Positions 1,458-36,125 of a stretch of DNA of 36,125 bases are shown piece by piece; the stretch's first letter is position 1; each line of letters starts with the position of its first letter. The position numbers and the translations under genes are program-made. The notes under the pieces are model-generated. The model was not told the DNA's origin, ran no database searches, and was given only the letters and a program-made list of their open reading frames with translations. The DNA lies in assembly GCA_003568945.1 (NCBI GenBank), contig BDIP01000051.1, positions 1 through 36,125 of the forward strand, given 5' to 3'. This DNA comes from Kipferlia bialata. Its lineage: Eukaryota.

Positions 1458-3824
1458 ATGCTTGCCTCCCTCCGCTCCGTCCGCCCCTCCCTCTCTGCCC
1501 TGTCTGCATGCTTCAGCGTGTCCTTCTGTGACGACACGGAGCTGGCACACATGCTGGGGAGGTATGTATCATGTGGACACACATATCTGTATGTATAAAG
1601 GCAAATATAGGCATGGGACTGCCTATCACGTAATACTGGTTGTTTCCGGTGTGTTATAACTGTGTATAGCTATATTTTAGCTTTATCCCACCCCCTGTTG
1701 TGTGGGAGGTGATTGTTGAGTTGGCACAGTTTGATACCGGTACCGTCTGTTGACTTTGTGGATCTATCCATGTTTCACCCCCACACCTCTCTAGGTGTCT
1801 TCCTAGGGTTTTTTTATGTCTTGTAACTGTCGCAGCATTGACTCTTATCTGGTTTCGTGTCTCTTTGATCATCGTTGTCTACTGTTTCTCACTCGTCAAT
1901 CATATCACGTTTGTCATCTACTCAATCTCCTCCAATACACTATCACCCTGAGCATACTGTACCATATGCCTCTGTGTACGCTATATCCTTCTCATTGGTG
2001 CCCTCGTCAGACTTATCTCACCCCCATTATGTTGATGTGTCTGTTACCAGGTACCCCGACCACACTGCCTCTGCCATATTGAAATATATATATATGTGTA
2101 CATAGCAATACCATGTATATGCATACATATAGATACTGATACTGGTACTGATACCCAGGTACCCCGACCACACTGCCTCTGCCATATATGTATGTACACA
2201 CACATATTTGTATAGATATCATATACCATGTGTATAGATACATACTGATACTGATACCCAGGTACCCCGACCACACTGCCTCTGCCGTTGTGCCCCTCCT
2301 CCTGATGGCATCTGAGAGGTAGGATGGGTGTGTATATGTATATATATATATATATGTGTGTGTGTACATTGGTGGAGGGAACGGCTCATATTATCTCTTC
2401 GTCTGGTAGGTAGTGAGACAAGGATATAGAGATTATTACATTCTCTCTCTACAATGCACACCCACTCCCTTTACCTCTCTAACCCCTTACAGTGTCTGTC
2501 TCTGTGTATCTCTCTGCAATGCATACTCCTCCTCCTCACCCCAGGACCGGCATCACCGACGAGGTCATCGCTGAGATTGCCAGGGAGACCGGGTCCAAGG
2601 CATCAAAGTGAGTGGATACTATATACTGTATATAGTGTATAGTATATATAGTATATATATATATATATAGTATGTGTGATTGCCGAGATTGCCAGGGAGA
2701 CTGGGTCCAAGGCATCAAAGTGAGTATATTGGGTATATAGTGTATGTGGTGTAATATATTTTTATAGTATATATATATCATGTGTCATTGCTGAGATTGC
2801 CAGGGAGACTGGATCNNNNNNNNNNNNNNNNNNNNNNNNNNNNNNNNNNNNNNNNNNNNNNNNNNNNNNNNNNNNNNNNNNNNNNNNNNNNNNNNNNNNN
2901 NNNNNNNNNNNNNNNNNNNNATATTTATAGTATATATATATCATGTGTCATTGCTGAGATTGCCAGGGAGACTGGGTCCAAGGCATCAAAGTGAGTGTAG
3001 AGTGTATAGGGATTATCTTGGTGTCAATCCCGTCTGGTAGAGTCTCACCCCCAGGGTGTCTGCCGCCACCGACTTCTACCACATGCTCAACAGACACGCA
3101 CCCCCCAAGCACGACATCAAGGTAGGAATGGGCGGTGTCAGTAGTGAAATATTGTATTATCATTGCATAGGGAGTTTGTAATCCCAATAGCAACACTAAG
3201 GTGGGTAGTGTATATAGTGTATATAGTGTATTTGTATGCAGTCCCTCACTGCAGATCTGCACCTCCCCCTCCTGTGCCCTTGGTGGCTCTGAGGCCCTTC
3301 TGGCCGAGATCCAGGCCAAGGCCGACATCTGCAACGAGGGTATGCATACTGTTGTATATGTATATACTCATATGCTCTACCCCATCTCTTACTCCAGGCA
3401 TCCCCGAGGGTGATGCCCTGCTTGTGGGTATAGTATATATATATGTGCATACTATTGAATATGTATATACTCCTATGCTCTGCCCCATCTCTTACCCCAG
3501 GCATCCCCGAGGGCGATGCCCTGCTTGTGGGTGTGGGTGAGTGTGAGTGCCTGGGCGCATGCTGCTCTGCCCCTGCTGCCATGGGTGAGTGGGTGCACTA
3601 TATATACTATGATTCATATTTTTGTCTCTCTCTTTCTCTCTTTATATAGTCTAATCCTCAGTTGACGGCTGCATCCAGGACCACCTATCTCTCTCTCACA
3701 CACACACGTTCTCTCTCTCTCTCTCAATATATATATATATGTATTTTGACCCCCAGTTGATGGCTACATCAAGGACCACCTGTACATGGGGGACCTCGAC
3801 ACCATATTCGAGTCCTGCTGCTAA
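1458..3824 (+). CDS. nuoE: NADH dehydrogenase 24-kDa [2Fe-2S] subunit (NuoE/NDUFV2), probably targeted to a mitochondrion-related organelle; 7 exons, 175 aa
   Basis: Exons 1458-1561, 2262-2318, 2545-2607, 3055-3121, 3255-3339, 3501-3584, 3757-3824 join in phase: MLASLRSVRPSLSALSACFSVSF...RYPDHTASAVVPLLLMASER...VSAATDFYHMLN...ICTSPSCALGGSEALL...ECECLGACCSAPAAMVDG...CC*. The C-x4-C and C-x3-C (CLGAC) cluster ligands and the FY motif match the NuoE family. Confidence 0.93.
2048..2286 (+). repeat. Three copies of the NuoE intron-1 acceptor plus exon-2 start (two intronic echoes and the real exon)
   Basis: CAGGTACCCCGACCACACTGCCTCTGCC at 2048-2075, 2156-2183 and 2259-2286; only the last continues into the full exon. 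Confidence 0.95.
2564..2996 (+). repeat. NuoE exon-3 3' end plus donor, repeated at least three times inside intron 3
   Basis: GAGATTGCCAGGGAGAC[CT]GGGTCCAAGGCATCAAAGTGAGT at the real junction (to 2613) and at about 2680-2725, 2785-2815 (runs into the N gap) and 2947-2996. Confidence 0.95.
2816..2920. other. Assembly gap (N run) within a repeat array; a second small gap lies at 9021-9029
   Basis: Run of N in the sequence. Confidence 0.99.
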
Positions 3825-4242: not shown

Positions 4243-4874
4243 TTACTGGCTCTCCACCACAGACTCCAGCACCTGGGTCAGCTGCTCCGCCTGCTCCTCC
4301 CTCTCGGCCCTCTCCCGGGCAATCTCAGCCTCGACCTGGGGGGTGAGGCATTGCACTATTCACAATATCTATACACACACTGTATATACCTGGTGGTGGC
4401 CTGTCTCGATGTCCCTGAGTGCCCTCTCCACCGACTGCATCAGCCTCTCCACCCTGCCAGACAGGGTGGTGGACCTGCGCTCAATGTCCTCGAGGCGGTG
4501 GGAGGTGTGGCCGTCCTGGGGGTTAGTATACGTGTTACACACAGATATAGTATATACAATACATACATATTGCATACCTGCTCCTCCTTGGCAAGGGTGA
4601 CTGGCAGCATATATATACATATACATATATACATAATAATACACAGTATATACTATATATGAATGTACCTGCTCCTCCCTGGCGAGTGTGACTGGCAGCA
4701 GCTTGTAGTCAACCATGCGCTGGAACACCTCGCGGCCATCCCTAGGGGGTGAGGTGTATGTGTACATGTATTTAATAATATATAGAATATATACATATAT
4801 ACACATTCATACCTGATGAAGACCAGTGCCTCGTTGATCATCCTGACACGCTCCTCGTCCTCCTTCTCCTGGGG

Positions 4875-9553: not shown

Positions 9554-12500
9554 TTACATCTCAATGACAACAGTCTGTATGCTGTTCATGGGCACAGTGG
9601 TCTGGAACATGAATGTGTCGTTGACTGAGACGCGCATGACCCTGGGAGTCAGAGGGAACATATGAATGTATCTACATTCACATATATATATATATATATC
9701 CATCCCCCCTACCTGTCGTAGTTCTGTCTGTTCATCAGCACCATCTTGGCTGTGCCTGTCAAGGGGTCAACCACAGCCAGGGACTCGACATCGTCCTTCA
9801 TCTGACAGTCTACAGTGAGTCAAGGTGTGAACATATATATATAGAGTATATACAATGTATAGACTCAAGACTCATTTGTCATTGGGTAGGCAGCTAAGGT
9901 AAACTCTTCTAGACTAACAGCACAATAACATAGTATACAGCCGTATATCAACAGCAATAACAGAGAACACAGTGCCGTCGGTCATCTGGCAGATCCATCA
10001 ATTGAATGAAAATGCATATATGTATTCACCCCCATATGTCTTGAACACTCAGTCCCATATATGTATAAACTATGTAGTATATAGAAGTGAATTATAGTAC
10101 ACCCAAACCTGTTTTCAAGACCATGTCCCCCGGTCTCATGTGCTTGGAGAAGTGGCCCAGATAGTACAGGTTGGGTCTGGGGTCAGTGTCATGTAATGCA
10201 TATTATCATACACTTATATAGATAGTAGAAGTATGTATATAGAGAGGCCAGCCCGTGTAGTACAGGTTGGGTCTGGGGTAAGCATCATATTATGAATATT
10301 ATCATATACATACCATATAGTATATATATATAACAGTAGTAAACATAAAGAGAGGTATTACAGGTTGGGTCTTGGGGTAGATATCAATGTTTATCTCTCT
10401 ATCACTGTATACACATCCCCTTGCCTAGCCTCTATGTCTGTGTACAGCTCAAATATACAGATTGTAAGTATATACACACTGGTATGTGCATCTATCTACC
10501 TAGCCTCGATGTCTGTATACAGCTCATTGGCTATGATGGGGGCATCACACGAGTTGGCATTCTTGTTGGGGCCTGGGGTGAGTCTCTCTCGATATATAGA
10601 CACATACTATCACCACGCATTCCCAGTATCCCCCTCTGTAGTCCAGCATGTTCCAGATATATATATAGACTCCTCATAAACATATATATGTGTTGTATCA
10701 TATGTATGCTTGGAGGTACTATATATACACTATCCACCCACCCCCTGTGTAGTCCAGCAGCATGTTCCAGACATATGTATATACCCATTCAATATATAAT
10801 ATGCACATCTATATTGTCTATGTCTATATTTATACACTATAAACTATCCACCCACCCCCTGTGTAGTCTAGTAGCATGTTCCAGATGACCCAGGACTGGG
10901 CACCGCTCCTACAGGGTGAGGGTGAGGTACATCATGGTGATACATATGATATATATATATAAATTCACGATTTTACTATTCAGCATCCTGGGGGTGAGAT
11001 GTATATATGCCTATATATGTACATACATACCTATAGTGATATATATAAACCCTCACCTGATGTCCCAGAGTATGTCCCTGTATGTATCACTCTCTCTCAC
11101 CAGTCACATCCATTATCCATATATTCTGATATACACCCTACACTCTATACCTAATGTCCCACAGTATATCATGCCCCACGGCCTCTGCCCTACTCCACAG
11201 GGTGTCAGAGTCAGACGTGAAGGGGCAGGAGCAGGCCTGGGTAAGGTATGTGTATGTTGGTATCAAATGTATATATAACGAAGCAGAATATACATGAATG
11301 GGGATAAGGTGAAGGGACAGGAGCATGCATTTGTTGGGGGTATACGGAAACTTCTATATATACATAGTACATGTAGACCATATCTCGTTAATTAGCATCA
11401 GGGTGTCTTTGGCCACATATGTATATATAGAATTAATACATCTATATCTATCTATACCCATCCCTACCTCTGTCCCCATAAGCAGGGTGTCCTTGGGGTT
11501 CTCACTCCACCTGGCTGTCAGAAACGCGGTATGCAGTCATACTGTACCAACCATATTGTCTATGACATTTTGTATATATGTATATATATACTATAATGTT
11601 GTCATATATCCTACTATATATATGGTACTATCATACCTGATGGTCCATGCCACGCTGTTGACATCCTCAAACTCAGCATCAGTGGTCTGGGGTGAGTAAT
11701 GATAGAGGCATCAAACACACACACATGTATGGACATGGATACACTTCCTCACCTTGAGCCAATGATTATTATTATATATAGACTTCGTTCACATGTCTGT
11801 TCCGTACCTTGTACCAGTGGAATGCCACTCAAGCAGTACATGTTCATAAATACACATGTATATGTATATATATATATAGATACACAAATATATATATAAC
11901 TACATCCACCCACCTTGTACCAGTGGAATGCCACTCCGTCTGTATACATGAAGATATACATACATGTATCATGTCTATATACACTTGCTCTCTGTATGTA
12001 CACCCACCTTGTACCAGTGGAATGCCACTCCGTCTGTGTACTCACCAACACCTGGGGTGAGAAGAGAGAGTGGGCGTGTCGAGAGAGTGCTAATGGGACA
12101 TGGCAAATGCCGTGTGTATGTGACAGCAGTACCATTAGTGACAACACACCTGCCACACTGTGATATGCCTCAGTCCATCGCCAAACACACACATGTATAT
12201 GTACATATATATACCATACATATTTACATACCTGGCACACTGTAGTATGCCTCTGCCCACTGCAGGATGTCCTTCTTGTCATGGTCGAAGACAAGGACCT
12301 GGGGGTGAGGGGGATAGGTGTATATATAAATACACACACACACTGTGTATATACTATGTACTATGTATATAGTATGGGCATGGTGTATGATGTCCTTCTT
12401 GTCATGGTCAAAGACCTGGGATTAGTGGGAATGGTGTAAATGTATGAATTATTCCACATGGATGAGTACAATCCGGTCTATACACCAATGCCTCGATGGC

Positions 12501-12705
12501 TGTCAATATATATGTCTATCTAAGTATACCTTGATGTCTGTGCCGTTGTCCTCGTTGTAGGCCTGGATGGCAGGGCATGGGGTGAGAGGAGAGAGAAGTA
12601 TGTGTATGTATATATTATACATAATATACACATATTAGTATAATCAATATCATACATACATCTGTCTGGATGGCAGGGCATGGGGTGAGAGAGGTGTCTG
12701 GGTGC

Positions 12706-12757
<52 letters not shown>

Positions 12758-14623
12758 GTATACTATGAGAATACACACAATAGATATGTATGTATATACT
12801 ATACCATTCACACATCTGTATATATGGCAGGGCATGGAGTGAGACCAGGATGAATGAAAGGTATGTGATGTAATAACTGCCCATACCCAGGTGGTTGACC
12901 ACGAGTGATGCCATCTGGGAGACATGTGATATGTACATGTATACACATATATCTATATATTGTGATTCCCATCAAAGCATATATATACACATACACCGTA
13001 CCTAAGTGGTTGACCACGAATGATGCCATCTGGGATGCAGTGTAGGAGCAGCACTCCCACCTGGGGGTATGGAGGTGATATAAACACAAACACCTTACAA
13101 ATGGACATATTTAGGATTATGTGGTGGTCCATACCTGTGATCACCCCTCAGAGCTATATATAGTACATCGTATCTACGCCATGAGTATACCATACCTGTG
13201 AGTCCCCACCACCTCGTTCTCCACCGTGATGCCCCAGAGGTCAATCCCATGGGCAGCATATGCCTGAGGGGTCAGATGCTTCTATGTACATACATACATA
13301 TATATATATATACATATACACCCTCCCACCTCGAAGTACTTAGTGAAGTACTTGGCCCATGCTGCCAGGGTGCGGTCATCCCACTTGAGGCATGGGGTGA
13401 GGGGAGGGGGGTATATAGTATGTATATATACAAGAAATTGATGTAGACATGGGGTGACTTGGATATACAGAATAACAAGTAAATGTACGCACTATACATA
13501 TGTGTCAATCCATGAAGGTAGGGAAATGTGGGGATACACACACATACAGACATACCTGGTGTAGGGGAGGTCTCCATGGCTCCGTTGGACTGGGGGTGAG
13601 GGACCACGAAAGGGGGAGAAATATATGACTGTATGTAAATGTGTACCCATCTTCCTCCATGCGGGTGATATACTCAGGAATATGAATGCACCATATATGA
13701 CATATATATATGCACATATGTATGTGCATATACCTTCATCCAGGCCGGTGGTGACCATGGGCTGGCAAAGACAGAGAGGCCAGGGGTCAGGGCAAGGGCG
13801 TCCTGGGGTTATGGCTATTATGGATACATTGTACAGTATAGTGCACTGGCTACACTACATCCCCCCACCTGTATCATGGGTATCAGGTACTGTGTGTCGT
13901 GCTCCACACTGAAGTGGTCAAGGGCATAGTCACCCTGGGGGGTGAGATAGGGACACACTATATATACACATGTATATATGATATACTGATATGTATATAT
14001 ATATATATATACTAGAGTGGTCAAGGTCATAGTCACCCTGGGGTGAGGGGGGGACATAATATACATACACTATCTGTATGTATATACATACATAGTCATT
14101 CATGATACAGTCACCCCGGCTGAGGGAGAGAGAGACAGTGGAAAGTGTGTACACACTGCACCATACCTCCACGTCATCGTACGAGTAACTGCTGAGGCTG
14201 AGGTACACTACTATACATTTGACCACACACATATATATACACACTATGTATTACTACACTTGTACAATACCTCCGTGTCATCGTATGAGTAACTGCTGAG
14301 GCTGAAGTCACACGAGTTGATGTGGGTGCGGCACAGGGAGAAGCCCATGCCTGGGGGTGGGTGTATATATGCACACATTCACACACACATATACGTATGT
14401 ATATATATGTAGAAAGACAACGATAGTTATAGTTATCTATATTCGGCACAGCGAGAAGCCCATGCCTGGGGTGCGTACCCTTGTAAGCCATAGAGATAGT
14501 GGTGTCATTATCCTACTATAAAGCATAAATGCTACCACCCACCTTCCTCCTCATCGAAGAGTGTCCTCATGACCTTGGCCTGTGCAGAGGGGGGGAGCAT
14601 GGAGTAGACATAGGAGGCAGACT
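9554..14623 (-). CDS. Glycoside hydrolase family 30 glucosylceramidase-like protein; about 19 exons, 5' end not found
   Basis: GH30 motifs in order across in-phase exons: GMGFSLCRTHINSCDFS, ASPWSPPAWMK, LWGITVENE (acid/base), VLVFDHDK, DGVAFHWY, LLMGTEAC (nucleophile), WVIWNMLLDYTGGPN, DAPII, YYLGHFSK; ends NSIQTVVIEM* (TAA 9554-9556). Confidence 0.9.
12717..12753. repeat. (TA)n microsatellite, representative of many intronic (TA)n, (GA)n and (CA)n tracts
   Basis: Long TA run. Similar tracts occur in most introns, e.g. (CT)n 16524-16559 and (GA)n 33354-33387. Confidence 0.95.
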
Positions 14624-16519: not shown

Positions 16520-16562
<43 letters not shown>

Positions 16563-19660: not shown

Positions 19661-20419
19661 AGAGATAACGAGACTTGTTAGCGGCAATGGTGCAAGACCA
19701 TAGGCTTAGCGTCATTGCAAAGGCTTCATTCTATAGAGTATTGTGTAAGCTATTTAGTATAGTGTCTGTACTATAGACTCTATTCTACAGCCAAGAGTGT
19801 GTGATGAAACACAAAGTATACTCTCAATTCCCATAGACTCCAAGGGAAACCTATACATATGTATATCTCCATCTATACTATAGTTAATTAGTCGGTTGCT
19901 ATTTGGCACTGATACCACCACCGGTTCTATGTAGAGAAATACTGTACTGACCCGCACACCAGTGGTTAGGAGTTCTGACTGTATACCCATATCGACACTC
20001 ACTCAGAGTGTCGGTGCTGCTCGGTGTACAACTTTTCGACCACCAGTGATATTGGTCCACTAATGAGGTTACTTGTATTAACTCGAACACTATTTGTTTC
20101 TAATATACGTAATGTCCACATTAGTGGAGTCGTGACACTGTCACTGAGGGTGTTAACTTCATGGACACTCAATACACTGATAAGTAATACATAGACACCA
20201 GGATCTTGCCACTTGGACATATACAATGGATGTGCTGACTCTTCTCGAGCCAGCACTCAACTCATTTACGATAATAATTCTAGATGCTACACGATAATGA
20301 ATGTGATGAATGTGGTGTGACAGGGATAGATGCTGTGAAACATCCCACCACTGATCACTCTAAGCGGGAGCGAGCACGAACACAACACCCGAAGAGGCAC
20401 ACCTTGCCTCCAGTCCCAA

Positions 20420-20450
<31 letters not shown>

Positions 20451-20458
20451 ACTGACAC

Positions 20459-23400
20459 CTATGACATGAACTGCCCGTACACTGCCACTCCAGCCAGTCC
20501 CAGACACAGCCAGTTGAGGGCCTCCTGCTTCCTGTTCCACCGGCCAAAGGCCTAGGGTGAGGCATAGAGGATATATATATATGATATATATACACATATA
20601 TACATATACATACAATATGTCCCACATGCCAGAGGCCTGAGGTATGAGGTGGACGCGTAGTATATAATGGATGTATATATAGCACATCTATCCACAGATA
20701 CTATATGTGTAGGGTGCCATAGGCCAACCGGTGGGGCATGGACTGACTGCATACAGCATACCATGAACACCAATAATATATGCAGTGGCAATGAGATATC
20801 GGTGCAGGTCTCTACTCTTGCAGATAATAAATATTACACATATACACACAAGAGTGCACTTACCTGAATGATACTGTGACTCAACACACACACACATATA
20901 TCTATATACGAGAACCATATATAAATGTCGACAGTACACCCCCCCACCTGGATGATCTTTTTGTGGCTGAAGCATGGGATGAGGAATGCGTATATGCCAC
21001 CACCCACAGCCCCAGCAAATCCTGAGGGTGAGTAGCTATCCGCGAGATACTAGTATACATATAGGTAAGGACCACGACTGAGAATAGTAGTAAGAGAGCC
21101 CTGACCACCGCTTAGCTCTCCGAGAGAGATCAGTACATACATATCCTATCTGAATACAGAGAAATACGATACAAGACACTAACACACTGTCCCCCAAGAT
21201 GTCTCCGATATATATATATACTACCTAGGATATACATACACACTACCTAGGATGTCTCCGATATTTGGATAGAACAGAGCACACATGAGGCCTATAAACA
21301 CCACAGCTGCATTGGCGCTGTACTTGACCAGAGGATTGAGCATGGGGTCCATCCTAGGGGTCAGATACTAGAACATTGAGAGACATATATCTACATAGTG
21401 ATAGATACTATACATGTATATGACTATGCCCTGCAAAGGGTTCAGCATGGGGTCCTTCCTAGGGGTCAGACGTATTATCATACTAAAACACATATAAACA
21501 GTGATAGAATCATATATAATAACATATATACATATATATACACATATATATAAGAATACCCTGCAAAGTGTTCAGCATGGGGTCCTTCCTAGCTATCAGA
21601 CACTAGGCCTAATACATTGAGCACACACATATATATATGGTGATATATATATGTATATGTAACTAAGCGTATCCTGTCACTGGGTCCAGCCTTATATGCT
21701 GGATCTACTGTATACTATCCTACTACACGTGTATATGAATATGAATGTACTTACACACAGAGTATATATATATACACCTATATATATACACACGTATATA
21801 CCTAGCGTATCCAGTCACTGGCTCCAGTCCAACCTTCTGTGCCAGGGACTGGTTGGACTCCTGTACATACAGGTCAGAGGCTGGGGTCAGGGAGATATGT
21901 ATATGTATAATTTAATATATGCATACTTGCTGTCCGTACAGGTCAGAGGCTGGGGGTGAGGGATATGGGAATAGCAGAAAACAAATATATATGGATGGAC
22001 GAACACTCCACATGGCTCTGTTGGTACAGGTGAAAGGATAGGCAGCATTTACAAACATATATACACTTATCCATTCCTCTCCAAACTTACACACATAATA
22101 CATATTGATTATACATATGTAGGCATATACATAACCATACCCATACCTGCCCTGCCTCTCTTCGGTGTATATACCCTTATCCACTCCTCTCCTAACGTAT
22201 GTATATAACTATATATATATATGTATATAAATACTATATATATACACCCGTACCTGCCCTGCCCCTCTTGGGTGTCCCATACCCTTAATCCATTCCTCTC
22301 CTAACGCATATGTATATACATATATATATATATTCGTATATGAATATATCCACCCATACCTGCCCTGCCTCTCTTGGGTGTCCCATACTCCACACCCTCA
22401 CCTAAGGGGGTCAGTGGAATATTAGTGGTACTATACTATACTATAATGGTACTAAGGGTCAGTGTCAGTGGAATGGAAGTAATACTACCAATAGACTCAA
22501 TATTGTCATGATTATGAAATCACACCTGACACTGAGATCAAGATACAGTAAATATTTATGCAAATATGTGCTTAACAACCCACCCTGGTACAGAAGTGCC
22601 TGGCCCTCAGTGGTGTGCTCAGGGTGCCCCATGTCTCTCTCTCTCTCCCCCTCCCTCTCCCCCCCTCTCCCCTCCTCAGTGTCGATGACACTCAGCCTCG
22701 AGGGACGCTCTGGGGTTAATGCAAGCTAAAATTATATACATATACATACATATACATATCTCATCATATATTTCACTCTATACAAACACTCAGCCTCGAG
22801 GGACGCTCTGGTGTTAATCTAAGGTATAATGAATATATACTCAGTATATATCTCACAATGTATCTCACTATTAACCTCACAATACACAAACACTCAGCCT
22901 GGACGGCTGCTATGGAGTCGTTACCCAATACAGTCTTGCTCACTATACATATATACATGCCTGGGGCCTTGGGGGGGAACACATGTATATATGTATGAAT
23001 CACTAAATACAATTATATCCAAACAGTATATGAGACACTATAAACACACACCTGGGGTCTTGGGGGGGAACATGGGAGCCTCACTCCCATCCAACGTCTC
23101 GCTCTCTTCCTTGTGGAACATATCAATGGACCGCTGAGGTTAGGATAGGTGGATAGAACCAAGAGTAGCAGGGAAAGATGGATAGATATAGTGTGGTGTT
23201 GCTGGAATAACTAGGCGCGGTTCAGTTAATCAAATATACTTGAGGAATAGTGACAGTATCAAACACTAATATACACATATATCTATATATCTGTATAGAC
23301 ATATAATATCTGTGTATTCCTATGTATTCCTATGTATATGTGTATATCTATGTATATCTATGTATATTATATATATATATATAATATCATATATATAATA

Positions 23401-25471
23401 TAACATATTGCATAATACAATATATTGTATATATGGAGTATCTGTGTATGCCTATGTACATGTATATGTGTCCATACCCTTGACACCCTGGGTGTTGATG
23501 CCGCATCTCTCATCCTGACGGACAGGGCATGTCTCTTGGCCTGGGGTGGGATGTCTATCACATATATATATATATATGTGTATATATGTGTATTCTATAT
23601 ATACATATATTATACAGATACGAATACATGTATATAGGCACGTCTCTTGGCCTGGGGTGGGGGACACATTATGGATACATATCACACATATATAAATGTA
23701 TATATATGCAATGTATTCAGATAGCATATCTACATGTATATGGGCATGCCTCTTGGCCTGGGGTGGGGGGCATATTATGCATATATATACACTTCTATAT
23801 ATATATACATATGTGCCTGGCTGTCCCTCCTCTGGTACTCTCTCCCTCATAGTACATATGTACATATATATGTGTATATATATACTTCTATACATGTATA
23901 CTACTCTTCACCTGGCTGTCCCTCCTCTGGTCCGTGTACATCCAGTATACAAACATAGGAGAGTCTACACATATATACAGAGTATAGAGTGTATGTACGT
24001 ATACATACATACCTGGCTGTCCCTCCTCTGGTCCGTGTGTATCCAGTAGATGCCAACAAGGTTCTCTGGCACGTTGGAGTATATATACTACATATATGGC
24101 ATGTTAGACGGGGATAGATAGAGAGGGGGGGAGAGAGAAAGAGGGGGGGGAGAGAGAGAGAGAGAGAGAGATGCCAACAAGGTTCTCTGAAGCATGTTAG
24201 ACAGGGAGAGTATATATACGACATTACTATATAGCAAACTTGGTTCTCTGGCATGTTAGACGGCGATTATACAATTATGCACCACTTATCTACTCCAAAA
24301 TCGATGCCTGTAAGGCAAGCACAAGTAAGAATAACCAACAAATCTTCTGTGCCACTAGACAGGGACCAGTATCAGAGTCAATATCAGGAGAGTACGATAC
24401 ATGTGAGTGTATATGAGGATGAACGGTAACCTCTTCAAGTCTGAGAATATTACCGAGCAATATGTGTAGTATCCGTACATACATATCACTCAAGAAAGAC
24501 AACATAACAATCTCCATCTTCATATGCATACCTCTAACTATGAGGATGATGACTGGGAACACGCAGAGAGTATGATACACATGAGCATGTATGAGGATGA
24601 CCGGTTACTACATGTGCATGTATACCTCTAACTATGAGGATGATTACTGGGAACACGCAGAACAGGTCCAGGAACAACAGAGCAGACACAATGCCGGTGG
24701 CCAGATCCTCAGGGAACAGCTCGGACTGGGGGTGGGTATATATATGGGGTTAAGACACATACTCTACTTAGAGTATTTAGAATACTTACAGTATACACTT
24801 ACACGTATATAGCTCACACTCCCTACAATAAGAGACATTTGGCACTGCGTACACATAGACACACTGTGTCATATTCAAAGTTAGAATAGTGGATGTGAGA
24901 CATACACCATGTCACGTACAAAGTCCTGAGGGATAGACACATACTCTACATGCCGTATACACACACATATATATATAAACATGAATCTACACTTAAGTCA
25001 CGTACAAAGTCCTGTGGGATTGTGATGCCCCTGTACCCGAGCATGCCTATGCTGCCCACTGTGACATTAAGGACTAGGGTGATGAGGTAGGACAGCCACG
25101 TGTCCCGGGTGCGCTTGGGGGGGTTGCCATGACACCTGTGGGAAGGGAGAGAGAGAGGGAGAAAGAATGGGAAGGAAAGCAACATGGTATGGAACTACGA
25201 CCCTTCTCCTTGCACAATATCACTTTGTTACTATGAGATACATTTGTGCCCACACATAAACATACCTCATGATTGTGAGGATGACGGAGTGGATGAAGAA
25301 GTTGGTCACACAGACACCCAGGAACTTGAGGGTCTGACATAAGGGGCTAGATGGAGAGAGAGAAGAAACAGAGAGATAGAGAGAGAGAAGTTGGTCACAC
25401 CTACACCCAGGAACCTGGGGGTCTGGATGTGAGGGGGTGGTTATGTAGATACTATATATATGTATGTATAC

Positions 25472-25504
<33 letters not shown>

Positions 25505-27640
25505 CTGTGCGGGTGAGTAGACGGGCAAAGAGAGAGAATGTCAAACATTCCACTTGCAGCCATATGAACTCTATTCTACTGTGCATTGACCAGTGCGAAC
25601 AATTCAATACTGACACTGATAGGAAGCATAGATCTAATCTTACAGACACATTATGTAATATACATACAATACCTGTATTGTGATCTTTGGCACCTCTACC
25701 CCATACTATATATATATGAATTAACTATATATATATATATATATACGATGTGGTACACCTGTATTGTGATCTTTGGCACCTCTGCCCCAACCTGGGTGGG
25801 CATGTTCTGACAGCCTGGGGGGGGAGAGAGAAGTATACTTAGTAACGATACTCCACCCTACACCCTATAGGTATATTGTATATTGTATGTATACAATATT
25901 ACATAATGGCATGCTCTGACACCCTGTGTGATACAATGACAATCCCTGGCTCTATGCTACCATGGGATAACCAGGTATATATATATATATATATATAAAT
26001 GCATATATATACTAGGTATATATACCTAGGTACACAATGTACACCGCCAGGAACCCCATGGCCACAAACCCATAGCTGCCTGGGGTGAGGGTGCAGAGAG
26101 AGAGAGAGAGAGAGAGAGAGACAGCTACACAGAGGAGTGAGGAGAGTATTTCTATACGGCAGAGTACGTCTAACGCCTATTGATGATGATCACAAACCAA
26201 GGATACATGCATAGATATGTATGTATCCACGTACCTAGCTTCACGATCTTGTCGATCTTTGTGATGCAACTGACACCAAAGAGACCCACCATGACAACCA
26301 GCGACAGGAACACATCGGCCTAGGGTAAGTGTTATGCTGACAGTACATAGATATATAAGTATATATATATATATATCCTTAGGATACTATGATACAGTGA
26401 GACATTACCACCAGGGAAAGAAAGACATCGGCCTAGGGTCAGCACGTGTAGGTATGTGGATTGTGTATATGGATATATATATTACATGTTTAGTATGCAC
26501 TCATACAATGATGCAGGCCATGACAAACAGGGACAGTAAATACCTTGAATGTGGGCACTGCTAGGCATACCTTGATACACACACATATATATATATATGT
26601 ATATATATCATACACTGATATATATATATTATTATATGTATATACCTTGAATGTGGGCACTGCCAGGTACACAATGTGCTGCAACAGATGGGTGCTGGGG
26701 TGAGGGAGAGGTACTATCACGGGATTCGAATAAGTTACAAGACAGCCAGAAGTAGTGAATGTGTATACTCCACATCTCTATATTCAGACCCACCGGATGA
26801 CAGAAGATAAGTACCCGTCTGACACATATATAGAGACTGTAGCAGAAATCACCGATAATAGTAATCCCTACCCTGTGGTACCCAACCCACCTAATTACAA
26901 AGTAGCTGATGGAACCCCCCGTCATGATGATCAGAGAGGCATATATATATGTATATACTAATACATATATATATATATATCATACAAGTATCACCATGTC
27001 ACCTAATTACAAAGTAGCTGATGTACCCCCCTGTCATGATGATCAGAGAGGCATATATATATATATATACTAATATATATAGACAAAGTTATGTTTCACA
27101 CTCCCTATATTATACTATATTATACTGGAGTAGCTACTATGTTACCTAATGACGAAGTAACTGATGGACCCTCCTGTCATGATGATCAGAGAGGCATAGC
27201 GGGTGAGGGTGCTGCTCCAACGGCCTGGTATTAGGGCGAAAGGAGAAAGAAAGAGAAAGAAAGAGAGAGAAAGCAATGAGCATATCAGATTGAGGTATAA
27301 TAGGAAGTATAGGGTATATTGTGCATATACATGGTGTATAAGTGGTTAGACAGAGTGACAGAGAGAGGGAGAGACAGAGGGTCTCGACAGATACATAATT
27401 GAGCGACCAATATGGATGCCCGACAACACACACATACACACACACATGTATATATAAATAGCAGACTGGGTACCACCTGGGTAGCACCTCTAACAGAATT
27501 ACTATAATACTTGGAACAATAGTATCACACAAATGTATTACTAAGTGGCATTCAGTTACTTCACTGTGGGTACCTAGGTACATCTCTGATATCTCTGGGT
27601 AGTCAAGGGGGACAGGGCGGCCCTGAATGTAAGGGTGTAG

Positions 27641-27671
<31 letters not shown>

Positions 27672-28287
27672 TAGTCCAAGAGGACAGGGGGGCCTTGAAG
27701 GTCAGAGAGAGAGACAGAGACATAGAGGGCACCGAGGGGAGAGAGAGAATCAAAGGGGGTGTTTGCATCAACCGGACTGGATAATACAGTGTAGGTATAT
27801 ATATATATATACCCAATACTACTGAGGCAGTACCTGACTGAGCAAGATGGCCACATCTCTCAGAATGTATACACATGTGGTGCCGCATATAATCATGGCA
27901 ACTAGAGCAGCTAGGGGTCCACCTACGAATAAGGGTGTAGAGAGAGAGAGAGAGAGAATGATCATAGATACCAGGGCAGCAAGAGGGCCGATCGGTTCAG
28001 GGGGTAGAAGAGAGAGAGAGCATGGGCATATCATGGTAGCTAGGACCACTAGCACACCGAAGTATTGAGAATAGTTTAGGTGTGGGTCAAGAAAGAGTAC
28101 TGGATTACTAATGTGTATACCAACAGTGGAACACCACAGAGCGTGTCAAGTGTGGAGTACAAATAATTATAGAGGATATATATATTGAGGAGACGCACCC
28201 CATATTCCTGCGATCTGGTACCCCCAGGGCAGGGACAGGATGGTGGCACCATTCATGGTGGATACAAGTCTCAGGGTTAGAGAGGGG

Positions 28288-28318
<31 letters not shown>

Positions 28319-29062
28319 GGGCAGGATGGTGGCACCATTCATAGTGGATACAAGTCTGATGGTAAGGAGGATGGAAAGACAGAGAGAGAATGAGATATGG
28401 GCAGAACAGTGGAGACAGAACTGTTACTTGGAGGATGAAGAGAGAGAGAGTGAGAGAGTGAGAGAGAGGATTGTCCTACTTGAAATACAAAAGCTAGAGG
28501 GAAAGGAATATGGGTGGGTGGTGGGGGTGGGAGCCCCAATGTGAGAAGAGCCCAATACATAGAGTGAAGGTTACGCGAGAGAGGAGTAAGAAGAAATACT
28601 TCCAAATGCACGCCAACAAATCCTACACTGACCCATAATGGCTCAATACTAAGTCCCGCTGATGCTAGAAGAATAGGTGGGGTACATAGAGGCAGGTGAC
28701 TCTCACACCGAGTTTCAAATAGGCAATGATTCAAATCTACATACGTGAAGATGATCTCCCGACTACTCTTTGGCTGGAGTGCCTCTCCTCCTGCAGTGGC
28801 AGGGGCAGCATAGAGTGTCCCTAGAGTCAGAGACCGTGCAGAAGAGTGACACACATGCAAGCTATTACTGAATCCTCAGTGCATGCACAGACCATACAGA
28901 TAGACAGGAGTCATAGCACATGTACACAGGTACCACCCCCAGCAGTATATACACCCGTAAACATACACACGCACCATCCTCACTGGACATCCCAGAGGAA
29001 GGAAGATTCATGACTGGGGCTGACTGAGGGTGTAGAGACCTGTTTTTGTCTTGACGGTACAT
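20459..29062 (-). CDS. SLC38A9-like amino acid transporter (Aa_trans/SLC38 family); about 22 exons
   Basis: In-phase exons: KSSREIIFTLVSTMNGATILSLPWGYQIAG, LDYPEISEMYLGRWS, FLGVCVTNFFIHSVILTIMR, RTRDTWLSY, FCVFPVIILIVR, LFYPNIGDILGFAGAVGG, ending LAGVAVYGQFMS* (TAG 20459-20461). These parallel recalled SLC38A9 motifs (NTMMGTSILSIPWG, FFIHN, FYPNIG, QFFM). The start at 29062 is tentative. Confidence 0.88.
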
Positions 29063-29424
29063 GTTCTGGTCCTGTTGTTCCTTTACAGACAGAGTGACTG
29101 ATCAGAGCCCAGGTAGCGGGGCACCATGTTTGTGCTTACTCCTCAGTACGTGGTGGTGATTTGTATTTGACTCCTTAGTGTTCAGGTCAATTTGTGGAGT
29201 GTGCCGTATTGTGAGTCGAAGTGGTACTGATGTGTTGTAACTACTATATTGTCTTGTGTTGCCATAGTGAGTGCATAAGTTGTCCTATTTGAGTCTCATT
29301 GTCGTAGGGTAGCAGGTAGTGTATGTGTGTATTGTGTTGTGGCTTGTATGCCGAGAGTGCTTTTGATACCGGTACCGGTACCGATTACATACATTCATAC
29401 TTCTTATCAATTCACCACATTGCC

Positions 29425-30610
29425 ATGTGCATTTCCCCTGACCCCAGACTTGAGAGACACATCCTGAGTGCATGCTCCATACCTGCCCCCCTGGTGGGGG
29501 ATGCCCTTGGGAAGGCACTGTCTCTGCACGGTCAGAATGAGCTGGGTATGATTAGTGATATATATGTGTGCGTGCTATAATTGTGCTTCAGTCACCAGTC
29601 TTGGGGTGTGTAAGTGCATGGTATATACTTACTCCAGACATTGGATCCATGGTGGCCCATGTGTCTGAGGCCCTGGAGGGTCTTGGAGACCAGGTAGTGC
29701 AGACATGATAGTGTATATACTGTACTTGCACTGGTGTTCATTACTCATCGCTCACCCCAAGGCTGGAGCGTTTGCCAAGCACACTGATGCCGAGAAGGAG
29801 GCCGAGATCCGGTCCCTGTCGCTGCTGGCCATCCACATTGCATGTGTGGCTGTGCAGCATGCACCCAACCCCAAGCAGCTGAGGGCAGCGCTGGCCGGAG
29901 AACTAGGTACAGACAGTGCTGCAAGAGTGTTGAATTGGTGTGTCACTGACCTCTCTCTAAGTCACCCCAGGAATGCCCGAGGCCCATGCCGCCTCGTTTG
30001 AGAGACAGTGGAAGGAGAGTGGCCAGGTCAGTGGACACTATATATATATATATGTATGTATATACACGTCACATGCTGTCCTTCTCTTGTCCCCCTTTCT
30101 GACATTCACACAGGCTACTCTTGGGGCAGTGCGGAATAGGGTTCACAGCTTGGGACTGCCTGTACTGAGGGATGTAGACTGGGAGCTAGGTACTGACATA
30201 GTTGGTATCGTGTAGTTGTTTCGGTCTCATCCCAGGAGTGCTGCTGAGCCATGATGGAACCCAGAAGGCCAGGTAACTCTACTTACACGAAGTGGGGAGA
30301 GGAACAAGTGGTGGAGTGTGTTGTTGCAGTCTTCTCTTCCAGTTGTCACTTGTCACCTCTCACACCTAAGGGGAGTACGTGTTACAATGAAGCTAGCGGT
30401 AACAGACGACCATGCTGATGCAGTGGAGGATGAGCAGAGGGATATTATGTTCAACACTGGACGAGAGGGACTTGAGGGACTTCTCCAAGGTATATATATG
30501 CTGCAGTGGCGACAGGCCTCATCAGATTCGTCATCCACTCAGATTTATCTAATGCTTCATTCACCCCAGCTCTTGACCAGGCAGAGAGGGCGCTCTACCA
30601 GGATGAATAG
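29425..30610 (+). CDS. COMM domain-containing protein (COMMD family; C-terminus most like COMMD8/10); 8 exons
   Basis: Spliced: MCISPDPRLERHIL...FERQWKESGQATLGAVRNRVHSLGLPVLRDVDWELGVLLSHDGTQKARGVRVTMKLAV...IMFNTGREGLEGLLQALDQAERALYQDE*. The L-x-D-V-D-W-x-L motif and C-terminal helix are typical of the COMM domain. Confidence 0.85.
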
Positions 30611-30776
30611 ATTACTGATAGGTTATTAATTCTCAGTCAGTGAAAGATATGATCAGTATCAGCATAATGGACACCAAGCCAAACAAAGACCAAATACATT
30701 TCAACCACTATTACCCAACCCATACTCCCACAACTGAATACACCACCCGAGGCAAACAGGACCAACTAGACAAGAT

Positions 30777-31246
30777 TTACTTGGAGGTGTTGGACTTGGC
30801 GGCAATCTGGCCGGCGGTCATGGAGCCCCAGCCACGAGCCTGGGACTTCACGGACCTCTGGGATCTGCGGCGCACAGTCACGATGGACTCCTTCTTGTGA
30901 AGCCTACGGCAAGCGAGGGTCCAGTCGATCTTACGGGGGTTCCACCTGGAGCTGAAGTGAACAGCGGTCTTGTGGTCCTTGAACATGAAGGGCTTTCCGT
31001 CTCCACGGACAAAGATGCTTCCGTAACCAGCCTGGATCTGACGTCCGGAGTAGGAGCAAGTATCACCAGTGCTGTGGGTGAGACTGAGCCGGCATAGAAG
31101 ACACAATAAATGAGTCAAAGCACATAAGAATGCCACAGAACCACCAAACACCAACGAGAGGCCTCACACCGCTCTAACAACGCAGCATCCCAGCTCCCTA
31201 ACTCCATATCAGCATCCCCTAGCTATCTACACACGTACCGGACCAT
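30777..31246 (-). CDS. RPL24: 60S ribosomal protein L24 (eL24), 100 aa, 2 exons
   Basis: Exon 1 31239-31246 (ATGGTCCG|gtacgt) and exon 2 30777-31071: MVRTGDTCSYSGRQIQAGYGSIFVRGDGKPFMF...WNPRKIDWTLACRRLHKK. The CSYSG and NPRKIxWT motifs fit eL24; the four-Cys pattern of Rlp24 is absent. Confidence 0.93.
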
Positions 31247-31444
31247 TTCTGGGGATTATTCCGTTCGCAAAAGTAGGCTTCGAGCTGACTCGGGACGCTG
31301 CGTTCAAGTGCAACGCTAAATGCAACTTGATTAGAATAAGAACTACGACACGAGAAAAACAATGTTTTTCAAGAATCAAAAAAAAGGTTCACCAGAATCC
31401 TGTCTGCTTTGGTTCAATGAGCCCAGAGGTCACTCTGTTCTTCT

Positions 31445-31677
31445 GAGTATAGATGGGTTCGGTGATACAATGTATCGCCGGGGAACTTCTCTGGACCACA
31501 TGCTAGTAACTAGCGAGCCATGCGGCACAAAGCCTCCATCCCCGGCGTAATTAGCGAAGAAGCCTTTTGGCTGAGCGAAGTCGGTGGGTGGAGGTGGTTT
31601 GTCTTAGCACAGTTATCCCAGTCTGTCCCTCCTTCCTTGTGAAGGCGTGGGATACCTCAACAGAGGGCAATCACTCT
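31445..31677 (+). ncRNA. Candidate RNase MRP RNA (RNase P RNA less likely)
   Basis: CR-I-like GGAACTTCTCTG-GACC (31482-31497) pairs with CR-V-like ACCTCAA-CAGAGGGC-A (31654-31669) to form a P4 helix with a bulged U. Also present: CR-IV AGTTA (31611-31615), a P3-like hairpin 31460-31480, P8/P9-like hairpins 31502-31514 and 31517-31526, a long G.U-rich stem 31532-31595 capped by AAGAAGC..GCTGAGCG, and a P19-like hairpin 31631-31645. Folded by eye; ends approximate. Confidence 0.6.
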
Positions 31678-31932
31678 TGTTTATTTAATGGTTCGTGGTT
31701 TCAGTTGTTGGGGGCAATGGAAGAGAATGGGACCAAGATCAATGGGGTGGTCTACTTTCAGGTATTCCTCTTATTCAACTCTTCTTTCGGAGCCACTGCT
31801 TACAAGTAGCATTCCACAAGTACATAACAAATTTACTAATTGGGTATTCTACGGCAACAGGATATGTATCACCAACGGAAGTGATATACACCCACTTGCT
31901 CTTCCTCCGCACTGACATGGTACACTCTAATA

Positions 31933-33349
31933 TTACTGCACCTCTAGCACTCCATCACTGCCAATGAGCACAGTGAAGTCTCCCCCTAGGCCCTTCTCTG
32001 AAAGGAATGGTTGCACTGCATACAGGGTCTCGGGGAGGAATGTGCCCTGAGTCAGTGGGCTCATAAAAACTACGCTATGCATGAAACACAGATACAAACA
32101 CACCTCCACTCCAGTGCTCTGGCCCTCGGTGAACAGGGCACTGTCGAATATGACGTCAGCGAGTGTCTTCTTGAACAGCCGGAATCCAGCGCCAACATCC
32201 AACTCAGACTGCGAGTTAGAGACACAGAGGTATGAAACTCCACCCACTGTATATGATATAGACACCCCACCTCCAGTGTGGCCTGGGTCTCGACAACCTC
32301 TCCATCCTCGCCCTTGACCACCTGGGATGAGGGACAGACAACAAATGACAACACTGGATGATCATCAGGCACCCTGACACACGGAAATGATTATAGAAAA
32401 GAATATTTGATACCTGCTCTGGGAGTGGGTCTGGATATGGGTGCACGACGAGTGTCCCTCTGGATGGCTGTGTCTCAGTCTCATTCAGCTGGAACACAAT
32501 GACTGGGTTCTGTCCAGCACCCATGCTACAGTGAGATAGGGAGAAGGGGACACAGTATATAACTACTACGCTCCACTGCCACTCACCCCTTGGGTCCTCC
32601 GCTGTTCTGAAGGGTCCACCTGCCAGGGATCTGAGGGTGAGGGGTAGTCTCAGAATGACAACACAGGATGGTGATATAATGCAACATATATAGTCCATAA
32701 TGCAAAGAGGAGCTGCTAACATGGACGTTGTCTCTCAGCCAGTGAGGCATATATATATATATACATGCATATATATATGTACTGATATGGTACCTGTATG
32801 AGGTGTCTGTGCTGGGTGGGCAGGTGCACCACACACGCACTGGTGAAGAGGGAGGGGAGGGAGGAAACGGGTACTGAGTGTGAGTATCGGTGGGAGCACG
32901 GGATGGACAGGGTAAATATGTATATATATACATATACATAAACATATACAGAATAGAATGGTCATATGCACGCACCAATGTGGATCTGCCCCCCTCCGGC
33001 CTTGCCGGTGTGGGTGACCCTGGACTCGAGAGCTGCCACATTGCCTGGTACACTCCAGATGTCATCAGACCAGTTGTAGGGGCCTGGGGGTGAGTGCCCA
33101 GGGTGGCCATCAATAAGCATTAGTATCAGTATCTATAAGTGTCAGTGTCAGCAGTGAGTGGCCCCCACCTGTGTACCCCTCCTCTGCGTTCACCATGGAG
33201 ATGACCACAAAGTGCTCGAGGGAGGAGGGGGCGGGGAGGGCATCTGTGGAGAACATGTCTGGCTCGCCCCCATCTACAGGCTGGACAATGGGAATACGCA
33301 CAACCTGACCGTCAATACACAGTGGTAAGCACATCACATCTCTGTATGT

Positions 33350-33391
<42 letters not shown>

Positions 33392-36060
33392 ACCCACCTT
33401 GAGCACTGAGTAGAAGGCTGAGGGGGTCAGGGCAGTCTGGGACTCGGCTGGGCCTAGGGTCAGAGGGACAATACCATACACACACCCAAGACTGTGACAG
33501 AGTATATCAAGACAGTACCGGTGCATACAATATACCTATCTACATAATGTCCACATCCATACATACCTGACAGGAGGCATGCGACCTTGGTGGCCTTGCG
33601 GGCATTGGTCTCAGTCAGCAGCTTGAGGGAGTCATATAGACCCGCAGCGCCCCTGGGATGAGAGGTGGGTACAGATATATATATATGAATGTGACGCATT
33701 TTGTGAACTAAGGTACACATCAGTATATACCCACCTACGGAGCAGCTTGGGTGCCTCAGCGATGAACCCTGCAAAGAGAAGGGACACACACTGGTCGAGG
33801 GTCAGGGAGTGGGCCAGCTCATAGGAACCAGCCACCTGACAGGTTAGGAGACAGAGGGCTGCGTATACCTAGGTACCGATAGAGAGTCAGTGACACAAGG
33901 CCATAGTGGTTGTGTCACCTTAGCCACTGCCTTCTCCAGCAGGGGTATGAGGTACATGTGCCTGTCTGCACGGCTGAAGAGAGGCCGGTATGTCTCGTTG
34001 ACAGGGAGGTAGTCATCCACACACACGCTCTGCCAGGAGCCGTTGAGGAAGAATCTGAGGTGAGAAGGATAGATGCACCACTAGCATTGAGTATGGTCCC
34101 AACACCCACCCACATATATATACAAATTAATATGACAACACTACTCACTTGAAGGTGTGGATGCCGAGTTGAACGCTGGACAGCTCCCGCTGGTAGAGGT
34201 TCTCTGGGATAAGAAGGCTATCCATATATACTTGTGTATGTGCACTAGTAGTATAGAAATCTGCAAAACACATATACTCAGTATCAGTACTGTGAAACAG
34301 AGAGAGAGAGAGAGAGAGAGAGACTCACCCAGGAGACCAGGGCACATGTGGACAGTAGAGCACATGGCCTGAAGTGAGACAACACAGAGAGAGAGAATGG
34401 CATTGGTGAGAGAATACACAGGGTAGACATATACATAGATATGGACATACATGGATATTCACAGATACATACCTGCAGAAGCCCTGTTCTGTGGTCTGAC
34501 CGGAATGACAAGAGGTCTCCCTTCTGACATGAGAGAGAGAGAGACTGTCAGCCAGTATCAGAAAGGTCTGCATAGATATATATATATCGCTGACAGTGTC
34601 ACTATGGCAACACGGCAATGTTGCGAATGTCTGCCCATACCTCTGGCATGACGCATGCCTTCTTGTCCAGCTTGGTGATACGACGCCACCAGAAACACTG
34701 GGGGTGAGGGGCAGTATATCACTACAGCACTACTCCACTATCAGGGCTGAGCAGATACATATATATATACATATACATATATATATACCCTCACAGCAGT
34801 TGGACTGACCTGGTCATATGCGGGGAAGGAGGGTGTCCCAACGGACTCCAGCTGCAGTGGGAACTCACCATCCACCAGCCTGTTCTTGCCCTGAGGGTGA
34901 GTGAATACATATATACATATATGTATGCACTGAATGCGTGGGTGGGGGGTTGTTGTGGGGGGGGGGGGGGGGGGGGGGGGATACATATACACAAGAGTGA
35001 TGCACCACTGTCTCGTACCTGCTCCTGGCTGCGGGGCCTCTCACCAGGGTGGGTCCCTTACCCACAAGGGCTGTGTTGTCTGGTGGTTAGAGAGAACTCA
35101 TCCTACATATGCATACAGTACAGGGTATGTTCTAGTCCACAAATAGATGCACACTCAACCCCACCCTGTGTGTCTGTGAGGCTGTCCCCTAGGACACCCC
35201 CGAAGTCAGCCCTGGCCCTGTTGTACAGCGCAACCAGAACGGTGAGGGCAGCATTACTGGGAGGTGAGACAGAGAGGAGAGAGAGAGAGAGAGAAAGAGA
35301 GACATGCACTCCCAACCCTACCGCCACTCCTACCTTGTCTGCTCCTGGGCCATGTCACCCGACACAGAGGGGGTCTGGGGTGAGGGGGGGGGGTGATAGT
35401 AATAGTATGCGTGTATATACACACAGCTGTGTCCCCACCTGCGCCAGGCACATGGGCATAGAGAGTGCATGATACAGGGGGTGGAGGGGGTGGGTGGTGT
35501 CAAGGTGGGACTCCAGGGTGGTGGTGGTGGACCTAGGGTGAGAGAGAGTCACTGGAATATGTATAGAGAGTAGTGCCTGATACCTGGCCCTTCCGAACCC
35601 CCCCCCTGTCTGACACGACTCCTCCAGCACTGTCCTCAACAGCTCATAGTCCACAGCCCCTGCATCCTCAGTCAGCAGAGTGCTGAGCACAGTGTACAGA
35701 CCACCTGCCCCAGCAGCCCCCTGCTGCCTACCCCTAGTGGGGCCTGAGGGGGGTAGGCCATGGCCAGCCTCCCCGTCCCCGTCCCCCCCCTCCACCTGCA
35801 GCATGGCCCTGGCCACATGGGCCATCCCATACAGAGACACGAGGGCATGCAGGAGGGCATGGGCAGACAGGACATCGGGGGCAGGGCGCACACTCCCGTC
35901 CCCACTCTCCAGCCATGTCTGGAAGCAGGACTCATAGTACACATCCCCCTGGGGGGTGTCTGGGTGGGGTGTTGCCTCGTTGCACCCCAGCATGCACTGC
36001 ACAGCCAGGCACAGGTCGCAGTCTAGGTCGGAGCCCCCACTCCTCTGGCCACTCCGTTGC
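31933..36060 (-). CDS. Calpain-like protein (CysPc plus domain III), catalytically degenerate; 5' end beyond the window
   Basis: Exons give LVDGEFP, WRRI, GIHTFKFFLNGSWQSVCVDDYLP, LLEKAVAKVAGSYE, FYSVL, WSDDIW, then domain III IPGRWTLQNSGG..QNP and YAVQPF..GGDFTVLI; TAA at 31933-31935. One junction near 35020-35080 has an unresolved phase. Confidence 0.85.
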
Positions 36061-36125
36061 CTGGGACTCAGAGAGAGGGAGGAGGGGGGGGGGGGGGGGG
36101 AAAGAGAGAGAGAGACGCGGACACT

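Follow-up and report, generated by a model that had tools for sequence, protein, structure and literature searches.

Genes and exon-edge copies in the window

Kipferlia bialata is a free-living fornicate protist. The stretch of its DNA analysed here, 36,125 nucleotides of contig BDIP01000051.1 and referred to below as the window, carries nine genes for which 104 exons and 95 introns were modelled from sequence (Table 1), the exon limits being partly uncertain in the calpain-like gene and in the gene at 16042–17941. All counts cover this one 36-kb window of the species, and the hypothesis arose from the very data on which it is judged here. According to the accessible text of the genome paper, the K. 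bialata genome is intron-rich, with 124,912 introns, and has been used in the debate on ancestral intron content (PMC5874029). A transporter exon of the window matches the public K. bialata protein KIPB_000452 (public model P0001) at 100%, and this protein contains the whole sequence-derived exon model of that gene. Two exons of the gene called giardin-like in a preliminary description of this DNA gave no match in Pfam, and in the echo-bearing gene at 16042–18599 (forward strand) the frame could not be chained through all exons.

Table 1 Genes, exons, exon-edge copies (echoes) and read-derived contigs, with positions counted from the first letter of the window
Feature	Position	Strand	Remarks
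NuoE-like gene	1458..3824	+	weak PF01257 match; echoes at 2051, 2159, 2676, 2784, 2947, 3398, 3662
3′-edge echo of exon 4669–4741 (gene called giardin-like)	4578..4609	-	2 synonymous changes and R>K
GH30 glycosyl hydrolase gene	9554..14623	-	weak PF02055 matches; echo in 10/18 introns; uncited in the preliminary description
Amino-acid transporter gene (PF01490, KIPB_000452)	20459..28820	-	21 exons modelled, continues upstream; echo in 14/20 introns
RNA contig using exon copies and skipping echoes; DNA contigs carrying exon and echo	20460..21883	-	
Upstream 5′-edge echo of exon 26235–26319	26403..26432	-	6 synonymous, 0 non-synonymous changes in 10 codons
Downstream 3′-edge echo of exon 26646–26694	26544..26570	-	2 synonymous changes and Y>C
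Far 3′-edge echo with its own GT, cited	26891..26943	-	6 synonymous, 0 non-synonymous changes
Nearest 3′-edge echo with its own GT, absent from the preliminary description	27003..27055	-	4 synonymous changes and S>Y
TA-rich intron filler, 90 nt, from true donor to nearest echo	27056..27145	-	
True exon RWSSTLTRYASLIIMTGGSISYFVI	27146..27224	-	donor joined to acceptor at 26694; identical in public model P0001
Upstream 5′-edge echo of exon 27574–27622	27668..27694	-	R>P, P>L, one Leu codon change; acceptor AG lost
True exon GPLAALVAMII...	27834..27922	-	
Upstream 5′-edge echo of the GPLAALVAMII exon, cited	27958..27991	-	7 synonymous codons and A>S; acceptor AG lost
Upstream 5′-edge echo of exon 28199–28269	28317..28355	-	1 synonymous change and S>P
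Echo-free block: unnamed forward-strand gene (0/7 introns) and calpain-like gene (0/20 introns)	29448..36067	.	gene models

Copies of exon edges, hereafter echoes, were found in 37 of the 95 introns of the nine gene models. The scan was position-blind, each exon being compared with its two flanking introns at a score cut-off of 12, which 15 of 1500 unrelated exon–intron pairs reach by chance. It returned 64 matches scoring at least 12 in the window, 27 of them repeating a 5′ edge upstream of the exon and 32 a 3′ edge downstream of it, with five internal. Not one of the 59 edge-anchored echoes lies on the wrong side, 5′ edges being always repeated upstream and 3′ edges always downstream, and none spans both exon edges, i.e. 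there is no echo of a whole exon among them. All 59 run into a donor or follow an acceptor position, the repeated unit thus spanning the exon–intron boundary and consisting of 14–53 nt of exon edge plus a median of 72 nt of intron. Each edge has one to three echoes, arrays of two to four copies exist, and the median intron length is 276 nt with an echo versus 92.5 nt without one. The feature is therefore real and wider than had been claimed for it.

Concerning its distribution, the fraction of echo-bearing introns is 14/20, 4/6, 4/9, 10/18, 3/10 and 2/5 in six genes, and 0/7 and 0/20 in the two genes at 29.4–36 kb, an uneven spread (P = 1e-4). The echo-free block at 29448–36067, comprising 27 introns, might recombine little or have undergone a sweep recently; it adjoins genes with an echo in up to 70% of their introns. 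Both N gaps of the window (2816–2920 and 9021–9029) fall inside echo arrays. The copies at 2784 and 2947 are possibly a single one that was assembled twice, and echo arrays may help to account for the fragmented assembly. The echo at 3398–3427 of the NuoE-like gene (forward strand) has a GT after exactly 30 nt, and its filler, the intron part between echo and exon, reads as a complete GT–AG intron; judged from its letters, this echo could represent either an optional exon that keeps the frame or an intron that is just being gained.

As to the splice sites, a GT donor is present in all 95 modelled introns, and the acceptors read CAG (73), TAG (16), AAG (2), CAT (2) and GAG (1), with one unresolved. 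A branch motif directly precedes the acceptor window-wide, as CTCAC or CTGAC, then a C-rich part, then AG, and (TA)n and (CT)n runs are abundant in introns across the window. The two introns ending in CAT instead of AG after a normal branch motif belong to the GH30 gene (13391 and 12576, reverse strand); only these limits keep the frame open, and the upstream echo at 12679 also carries CAT, so that both are possible candidates for GT–AT introns. The acceptor at 28269 (reverse strand) is GAG, the same as in the public model, and its upstream echo at 28355 has the canonical CAG.

Differences between exon edges and their echoes

The preliminary description had proposed that echoes diverge from their exons almost only at synonymous sites, and its examples are borne out. 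Letter for letter, the exon end at 27146–27224 and the echo at 26891–26943 differ by six synonymous and no non-synonymous changes, the exon at 27891–27920 and the echo at 27960–27989 by seven synonymous codons and one A>S, and the pairs from the NuoE-like and giardin-like genes are present as described, the latter including R>K. The copy at 27003–27055 sits between the exon at 27146–27224 and the cited far echo. That the far echo ends in an acceptor and an 18-nt microexon was ruled out, the frame and P0001 joining the exon directly to 26694. The echo at 27668–27694 (Table 1) is a counter-example from within the span of the original claim and was omitted there.

Over 56 echo/exon pairs in five frame-checked genes, 80.5 synonymous and 47.5 non-synonymous differences were counted (pS 0.243, pN 0.043), distributed as 24:23:81 over codon positions 1, 2 and 3. 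Left out of the codon counts were three echoes of the gene at 16042–17941 (frame not secured), the copy at 2784 (cut by the N gap), the echo near 272 (three open frames), the five internal matches and all matches scoring below 12. Since 37% of the differences alter the amino acid, two of them being stops, the wording "almost only synonymous" is too strong for these counts; what stands is a per-site silent excess beyond chance. With one echo per edge (n = 45), 40 of 185 four-fold and 37 of 753 non-degenerate sites differ, which gives a 0-fold/4-fold divergence ratio of 0.23 (bootstrap 0.14–0.39). The null, a neutral echo beside a constrained exon, has an expected ratio of ~0.5 and was simulated through the same detector, yielding 0.55–0.60; none of the 300 runs made in each of four settings fell as low as the observed value. 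The earlier contention that the echoes do not behave like dead duplicates, neutral in one copy, is hence upheld by the observed 0.23 versus the simulated 0.55–0.60.

Leaving out the five edges cited in the preliminary description raises the ratio to 0.32 (p = 0.056 in a binomial test against 0.5; P 0.014 and 0.000 by simulation), and dropping the echo at 26403–26432 as well raises it to 0.39 (p = 0.22). After matched trimming of the simulated sets, by the top five or the top eight echoes, the null is still rejected (P 0.000–0.016), and for the set of uncited echoes the simulated P is 0.000–0.052, depending on statistic and setting. Taken by itself, the uncited GH30 gene has a ratio of 0.28 (p = 0.14), all genes except the transporter give 0.23 (p = 0.02), and the ratio is low for 5′ and 3′ echoes taken separately. 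Silent counts are overdispersed among echoes (P = 0.005) and the ratio climbs on trimming; therefore much of the signal lies in few strongly diverged echoes, and the silent bias is real but moderate. The differences between echoes are also silent-biased (8/42 four-fold vs 5/168 0-fold sites), 8 of 13 falling at four-fold sites vs 20% expected (p = 0.001). The direction of change is symmetric between exon and echo (27 vs 30), which rules out a directional shift in codon use.

Echoes in DNA and RNA contigs

Run X1 contains 97% of the 31-mers sampled from 20000–29500. Over 20300–22190, its contigs (1059 and 632 bases aligned) hold exon and echo together with 0 differences, at depths of 453 and 450 vs 471 in the flank, i.e. 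at single-copy and not half depth. In this stretch the tandem arrangement thus exists on read-derived contigs, which speaks against a collapse of haplotypes, named in the preliminary description as one way in which its reading might fail. It should be noted that X1 is possibly the source of the window and is therefore a second assembly, not a second sample. No other letters were seen in the X1 contigs over 20300–22190, contigs being known to drop variants, and this fits a haploid or homozygous culture.

Run X2 was taken as RNA by guess and from its spliced contig, and its word share of 0.18 was left out as evidence; an X2 record of 147 nt (depth 6.6, three gaps) and an X1 joint with a 21-nt side were disregarded as matches in low-complexity DNA. 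The spliced X2 contig of 1054 nt matches four exons with GT–AG joints and 0 other letters within 20300–22190 and continues into the exon copy of the next upstream exon, passing over the echoes. This test spans 20300–22190 of the same gene, not 26885–28055, and contigs drop rare forms; for the whole transporter gene, the public model uses the exon copies and the exon-proximal splice sites. The echoes lie within one intron bounded by these proximal sites, no new intron being spliced between the copies. The suggested use of echoes in mRNA is thus supported neither by the spliced contig over 20300–22190 nor by the extent of the echoes, none of which is a whole exon.

The present purifying selection on echoes that had been suggested alongside fares no better, as the amino-acid changes are no more conservative than random ones (mean BLOSUM −0.6, n = 35, vs −0.43) and include the two stops. 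Echoes also carry a 3-nt deletion, GT/AG dinucleotides are altered at 8 of 90 echo sites (38 of 45 echoes being intact), no acceptor-like motif precedes any of 32 downstream echoes, and an Rfam search gave 0 matches. Random-like changes, stops, splice-site decay and the skipping of echoes therefore give no sign of a selected, usable archive.

Intron flanks and candidate donors

The alignable intron beside an echo has a median length of 12 nt and covers 80% or more of the filler in just 5 of 47 cases. The fillers are 28–118 nt long and TA-richer than echo-free introns (0.195 vs 0.118 per base). Donor positions +3 to +6 differ at 36 of 92 sites vs 58% between unrelated donors, and acceptor positions −3 to −6 at 25 of 88 sites vs 40% between unrelated acceptors. 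Divergence thus amounts to 5–9% at 0-fold sites and GT/AG, 22% at four-fold sites and 28–39% at intron positions 3–6, whereas a plain young tandem duplicate with 5% change at 0-fold sites would be expected to have flanks ~10% apart. Echo and flank, being conserved at the sites that must be kept and divergent at the free ones, thus resemble a piece of another working allele. Across echoes, pS and pN are uncorrelated (rho 0.07); pN tracks flank decay (rho −0.34, p = 0.02) and is higher where the splice dinucleotide has been lost (0.098 vs 0.038, p = 0.006), as expected if pN represents age and pS dates from the birth of the echo.

A paralog of the transporter exists in the species as the partial models P0002 and P0003, with 74% and 65% identity over parts. 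At the 43 codons where the paralog differs, the echo follows the exon in 38, the paralog in none and neither in five; the paralog was therefore rejected as echo donor for the transporter gene (residues below 350). The echo at 26403–26432 codes for the gene's own peptide, not for that of the paralog. P0002 terminates exactly at an exon end of the transporter gene. Two metagenome scans for a second strain, with P0001 (63 pattern matches) and ribosomal protein L24 (420), revealed no relative, and P0001 has no other member in its 90% cluster.

Origin of the echoes

With slightly better than even confidence, we regard the echoes as untranslated remnants that an exchange with diverged alleles left behind and that decayed neutrally thereafter, and not as a selected archive. 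Among the ways offered in the preliminary description by which echoes may have been exchanged with the coding copy, the best fit is given by the exchange or capture of diverged alleles, which is, on balance, probably the right one; the selected archive proposed along with it is unsupported. A break in an exon would be repaired from the homologous chromosome, the copying running into the different intron of the other allele and rejoining out of register; alternatively, an unequal crossover might pair an exon with an echo. By either route—both would be compatible with the data—the exon edge of one allele would turn coding and the other edge would stay in the intron, and only the observed polarity would survive selection, because the mRNA would stay unchanged. 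The synonymous excess (~0.15 per four-fold site) would then represent allelic divergence and the non-synonymous differences (~0.05) the time since capture. A model with a mean allelic pre-divergence of 0.16 and a short neutral decay gives p0 0.058 and p4 0.207 vs the observed 0.049 and 0.216 and also fits the trimmed sets; it was hand-tuned to the same data, so that the fit shows sufficiency only.

Exchange between alleles would require a silent diversity of ~0.15 in this species. High silent diversity is known from other microbial eukaryotes; a Paramecium preprint (10.64898/2026.05.26.727746) yielded no usable value for comparison. The main gap is that the X1 contigs, the metagenome scans and the P0001 cluster contain no second allele or strain. 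Two echoes, with 6/8 and 8/9 silent sites changed, need lineages deeper than a simple coalescent readily gives, and fast mutation of TA-rich introns may weaken the argument from the flanks. According to the accessible parts of one report, metamonads lack NHEJ, fornicates lack Rad51A, have two Dmc1 and retain key meiotic proteins, Carpediemonas is probably haploid, and sex has never been observed in Metamonada (PMC8516963). These features make the exchange route plausible but do not demonstrate it. A bolder extension, which we consider rather doubtful, is that repair or recombination in Kipferlia systematically replaces exon edges by those of diverged homologues, the displaced edge ending up in the intron. 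A dated archive of former alleles would then be spread over tens of thousands of introns, outcrossing and a very high silent diversity would be readable from one genome, and this would be the main way in which introns grow in Kipferlia; its plausibility stems from a lineage devoid of NHEJ and Rad51A.

Among the alternatives, old duplicates in place would have echoes conserved at all positions, through a role in RNA, splicing or chromatin or through low mutability, with the exon drifting silently and the TA-rich introns turning over fast. This would account for the low 0-fold divergence and the unalignable fillers without a second allele, and the narrow range of filler lengths (28–118 nt) suits it; it is nevertheless unlikely, as echoes, for which no function is known, would have to change at about a quarter of the rate of silent sites, the differences between echoes are silent-biased and not position-blind (8/13 vs 20%, p = 0.001), splice dinucleotides decay, Rfam gave 0 matches and whole genes are echo-free. 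Distinctly unlikely is a rotation of units on the same chromosome under second-order selection, whereby a harmful echo would kill descendants once exonic and echoes would so be kept coding-compatible: exchange that frequent should, as an argument and not a computation, also wipe out silent differences, the non-synonymous changes are unfiltered, including stops and the 3-nt deletion, and the even DNA depth and long identical contigs over 20300–22190 show no ongoing unit loss in the sampled cells, even though rotation would agree with the arrays of two to four copies, with some echoes being mosaics of exon-like and echo-like letters and with the lower pN of echoes that have intact splice sites.

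Ordinary tandem duplicates, neutral in one copy, in which a few lucky echoes and the selection of examples produced the silent excess, are very unlikely. The rejection of the null under matched trimming of the top five or top eight echoes (P 0.000–0.016), the ratio of 0.23 without the transporter gene (p = 0.02), its low value in 5′ and 3′ echoes each and the too strongly diverged intron flanks all oppose such an origin, against which have to be set the 37% of non-synonymous differences, the overdispersed silent counts and the plain binomial test, non-significant without the six most silent echoes (ratio 0.39, p = 0.22), which also counts against the exchange of alleles. We see little chance that protein-level selection keeps the echoes as minor alternative exon ends in mRNA. 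GT or AG is intact in 38 of 45 echoes, and the NuoE-like echo at 3398–3427 could, by its letters, form an in-frame 30-nt exon, but 0 of 59 echoes span both exon edges, the 32 downstream echoes lack a preceding acceptor-like motif, the spliced contig skips the echoes with 0 other letters and the public model runs on exon copies; contigs drop rare forms, so echo use at a low level is compatible with them. An assembly artefact, two haplotypes having been placed in tandem, is hardly credible given the 97% of 31-mers held by X1 and its exon-plus-echo contigs at depths of 453 and 450 vs 471 in the flank, notwithstanding the two N gaps inside echo arrays and a possible lack of independence of X1.

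If the exchange of diverged alleles is the true origin, a single genome would allow silent diversity to be estimated and would testify to outcrossing in a metamonad, sex being unobserved in that group, and the echoes would record hidden sex as well as a route of intron growth, echo introns being three times longer. Even under the rival explanations, the almost perfect decoy donors and acceptors, ~100 nt away from the true sites, offer a natural test of the choice of splice sites by a reduced spliceosome, for which 87 of 174 proteins were found according to the accessible text (PMC6679479).

Comparison with known systems

The accessible parts of the Kipferlia genome paper (PMC5874029) and of PMC6679479 do not mention such copies, and a literature search, with subscription journals mostly outside its reach, retrieved neither a description of them in Kipferlia nor one of an allele-like form present throughout a genome. 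In human F7 IVS7, CBS, LAMIN B2 and PDGF, minisatellites have been described in which the first monomer extends across an exon–intron boundary (Borensztajn et al. 2006, PMC1557585). As in F7 IVS7, the unit spans the splice junction and the donor is repeated in the intron; F7, in the accessible part of that report, uses only the most upstream donor, and in Kipferlia likewise the exon-proximal site is used (RNA contig over 20460–21883; public model for the whole gene). The human minisatellites, however, are described there as single-gene arrays of 5–25 monomers, with identical pseudo-sites in F7, whereas the Kipferlia echoes occupy 37 of 95 introns in one to three copies, on both donor and acceptor sides, their intron part being mostly unalignable (at least 80% in 5 of 47) and their exon part showing the silent-site excess. 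In potato, the duplicated 3′ end of an intron together with the 5′ part of the next exon made a new intron (PMC4974935, accessible text), a geometry shared by the upstream echoes. Unlike in potato, the Kipferlia copies lengthen an existing intron (276 vs 92.5 nt), and neither the RNA contig nor the public model shows a new junction.

Tandem exon duplication with mutually exclusive splicing also leaves neighbouring copies that differ mostly at silent sites; in contrast to such exons, the echoes are partial, have one splice site, are skipped in RNA and bear unfiltered amino-acid changes. Proulx and Phillips (2006) reportedly treated duplicates that arise from alleles which had diverged beforehand, and one study on repair-mediated duplication by capture is said to have found that break repair can duplicate nearby DNA. 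Such allele-capture duplicates share with the reading favoured here a birth with allelic divergence, but apparently concern whole genes or vertebrate loci, not intronic exon edges. Repeats at splice junctions are thus known, while the allele-like form spread over many introns, as seen in Kipferlia, appears to be new.
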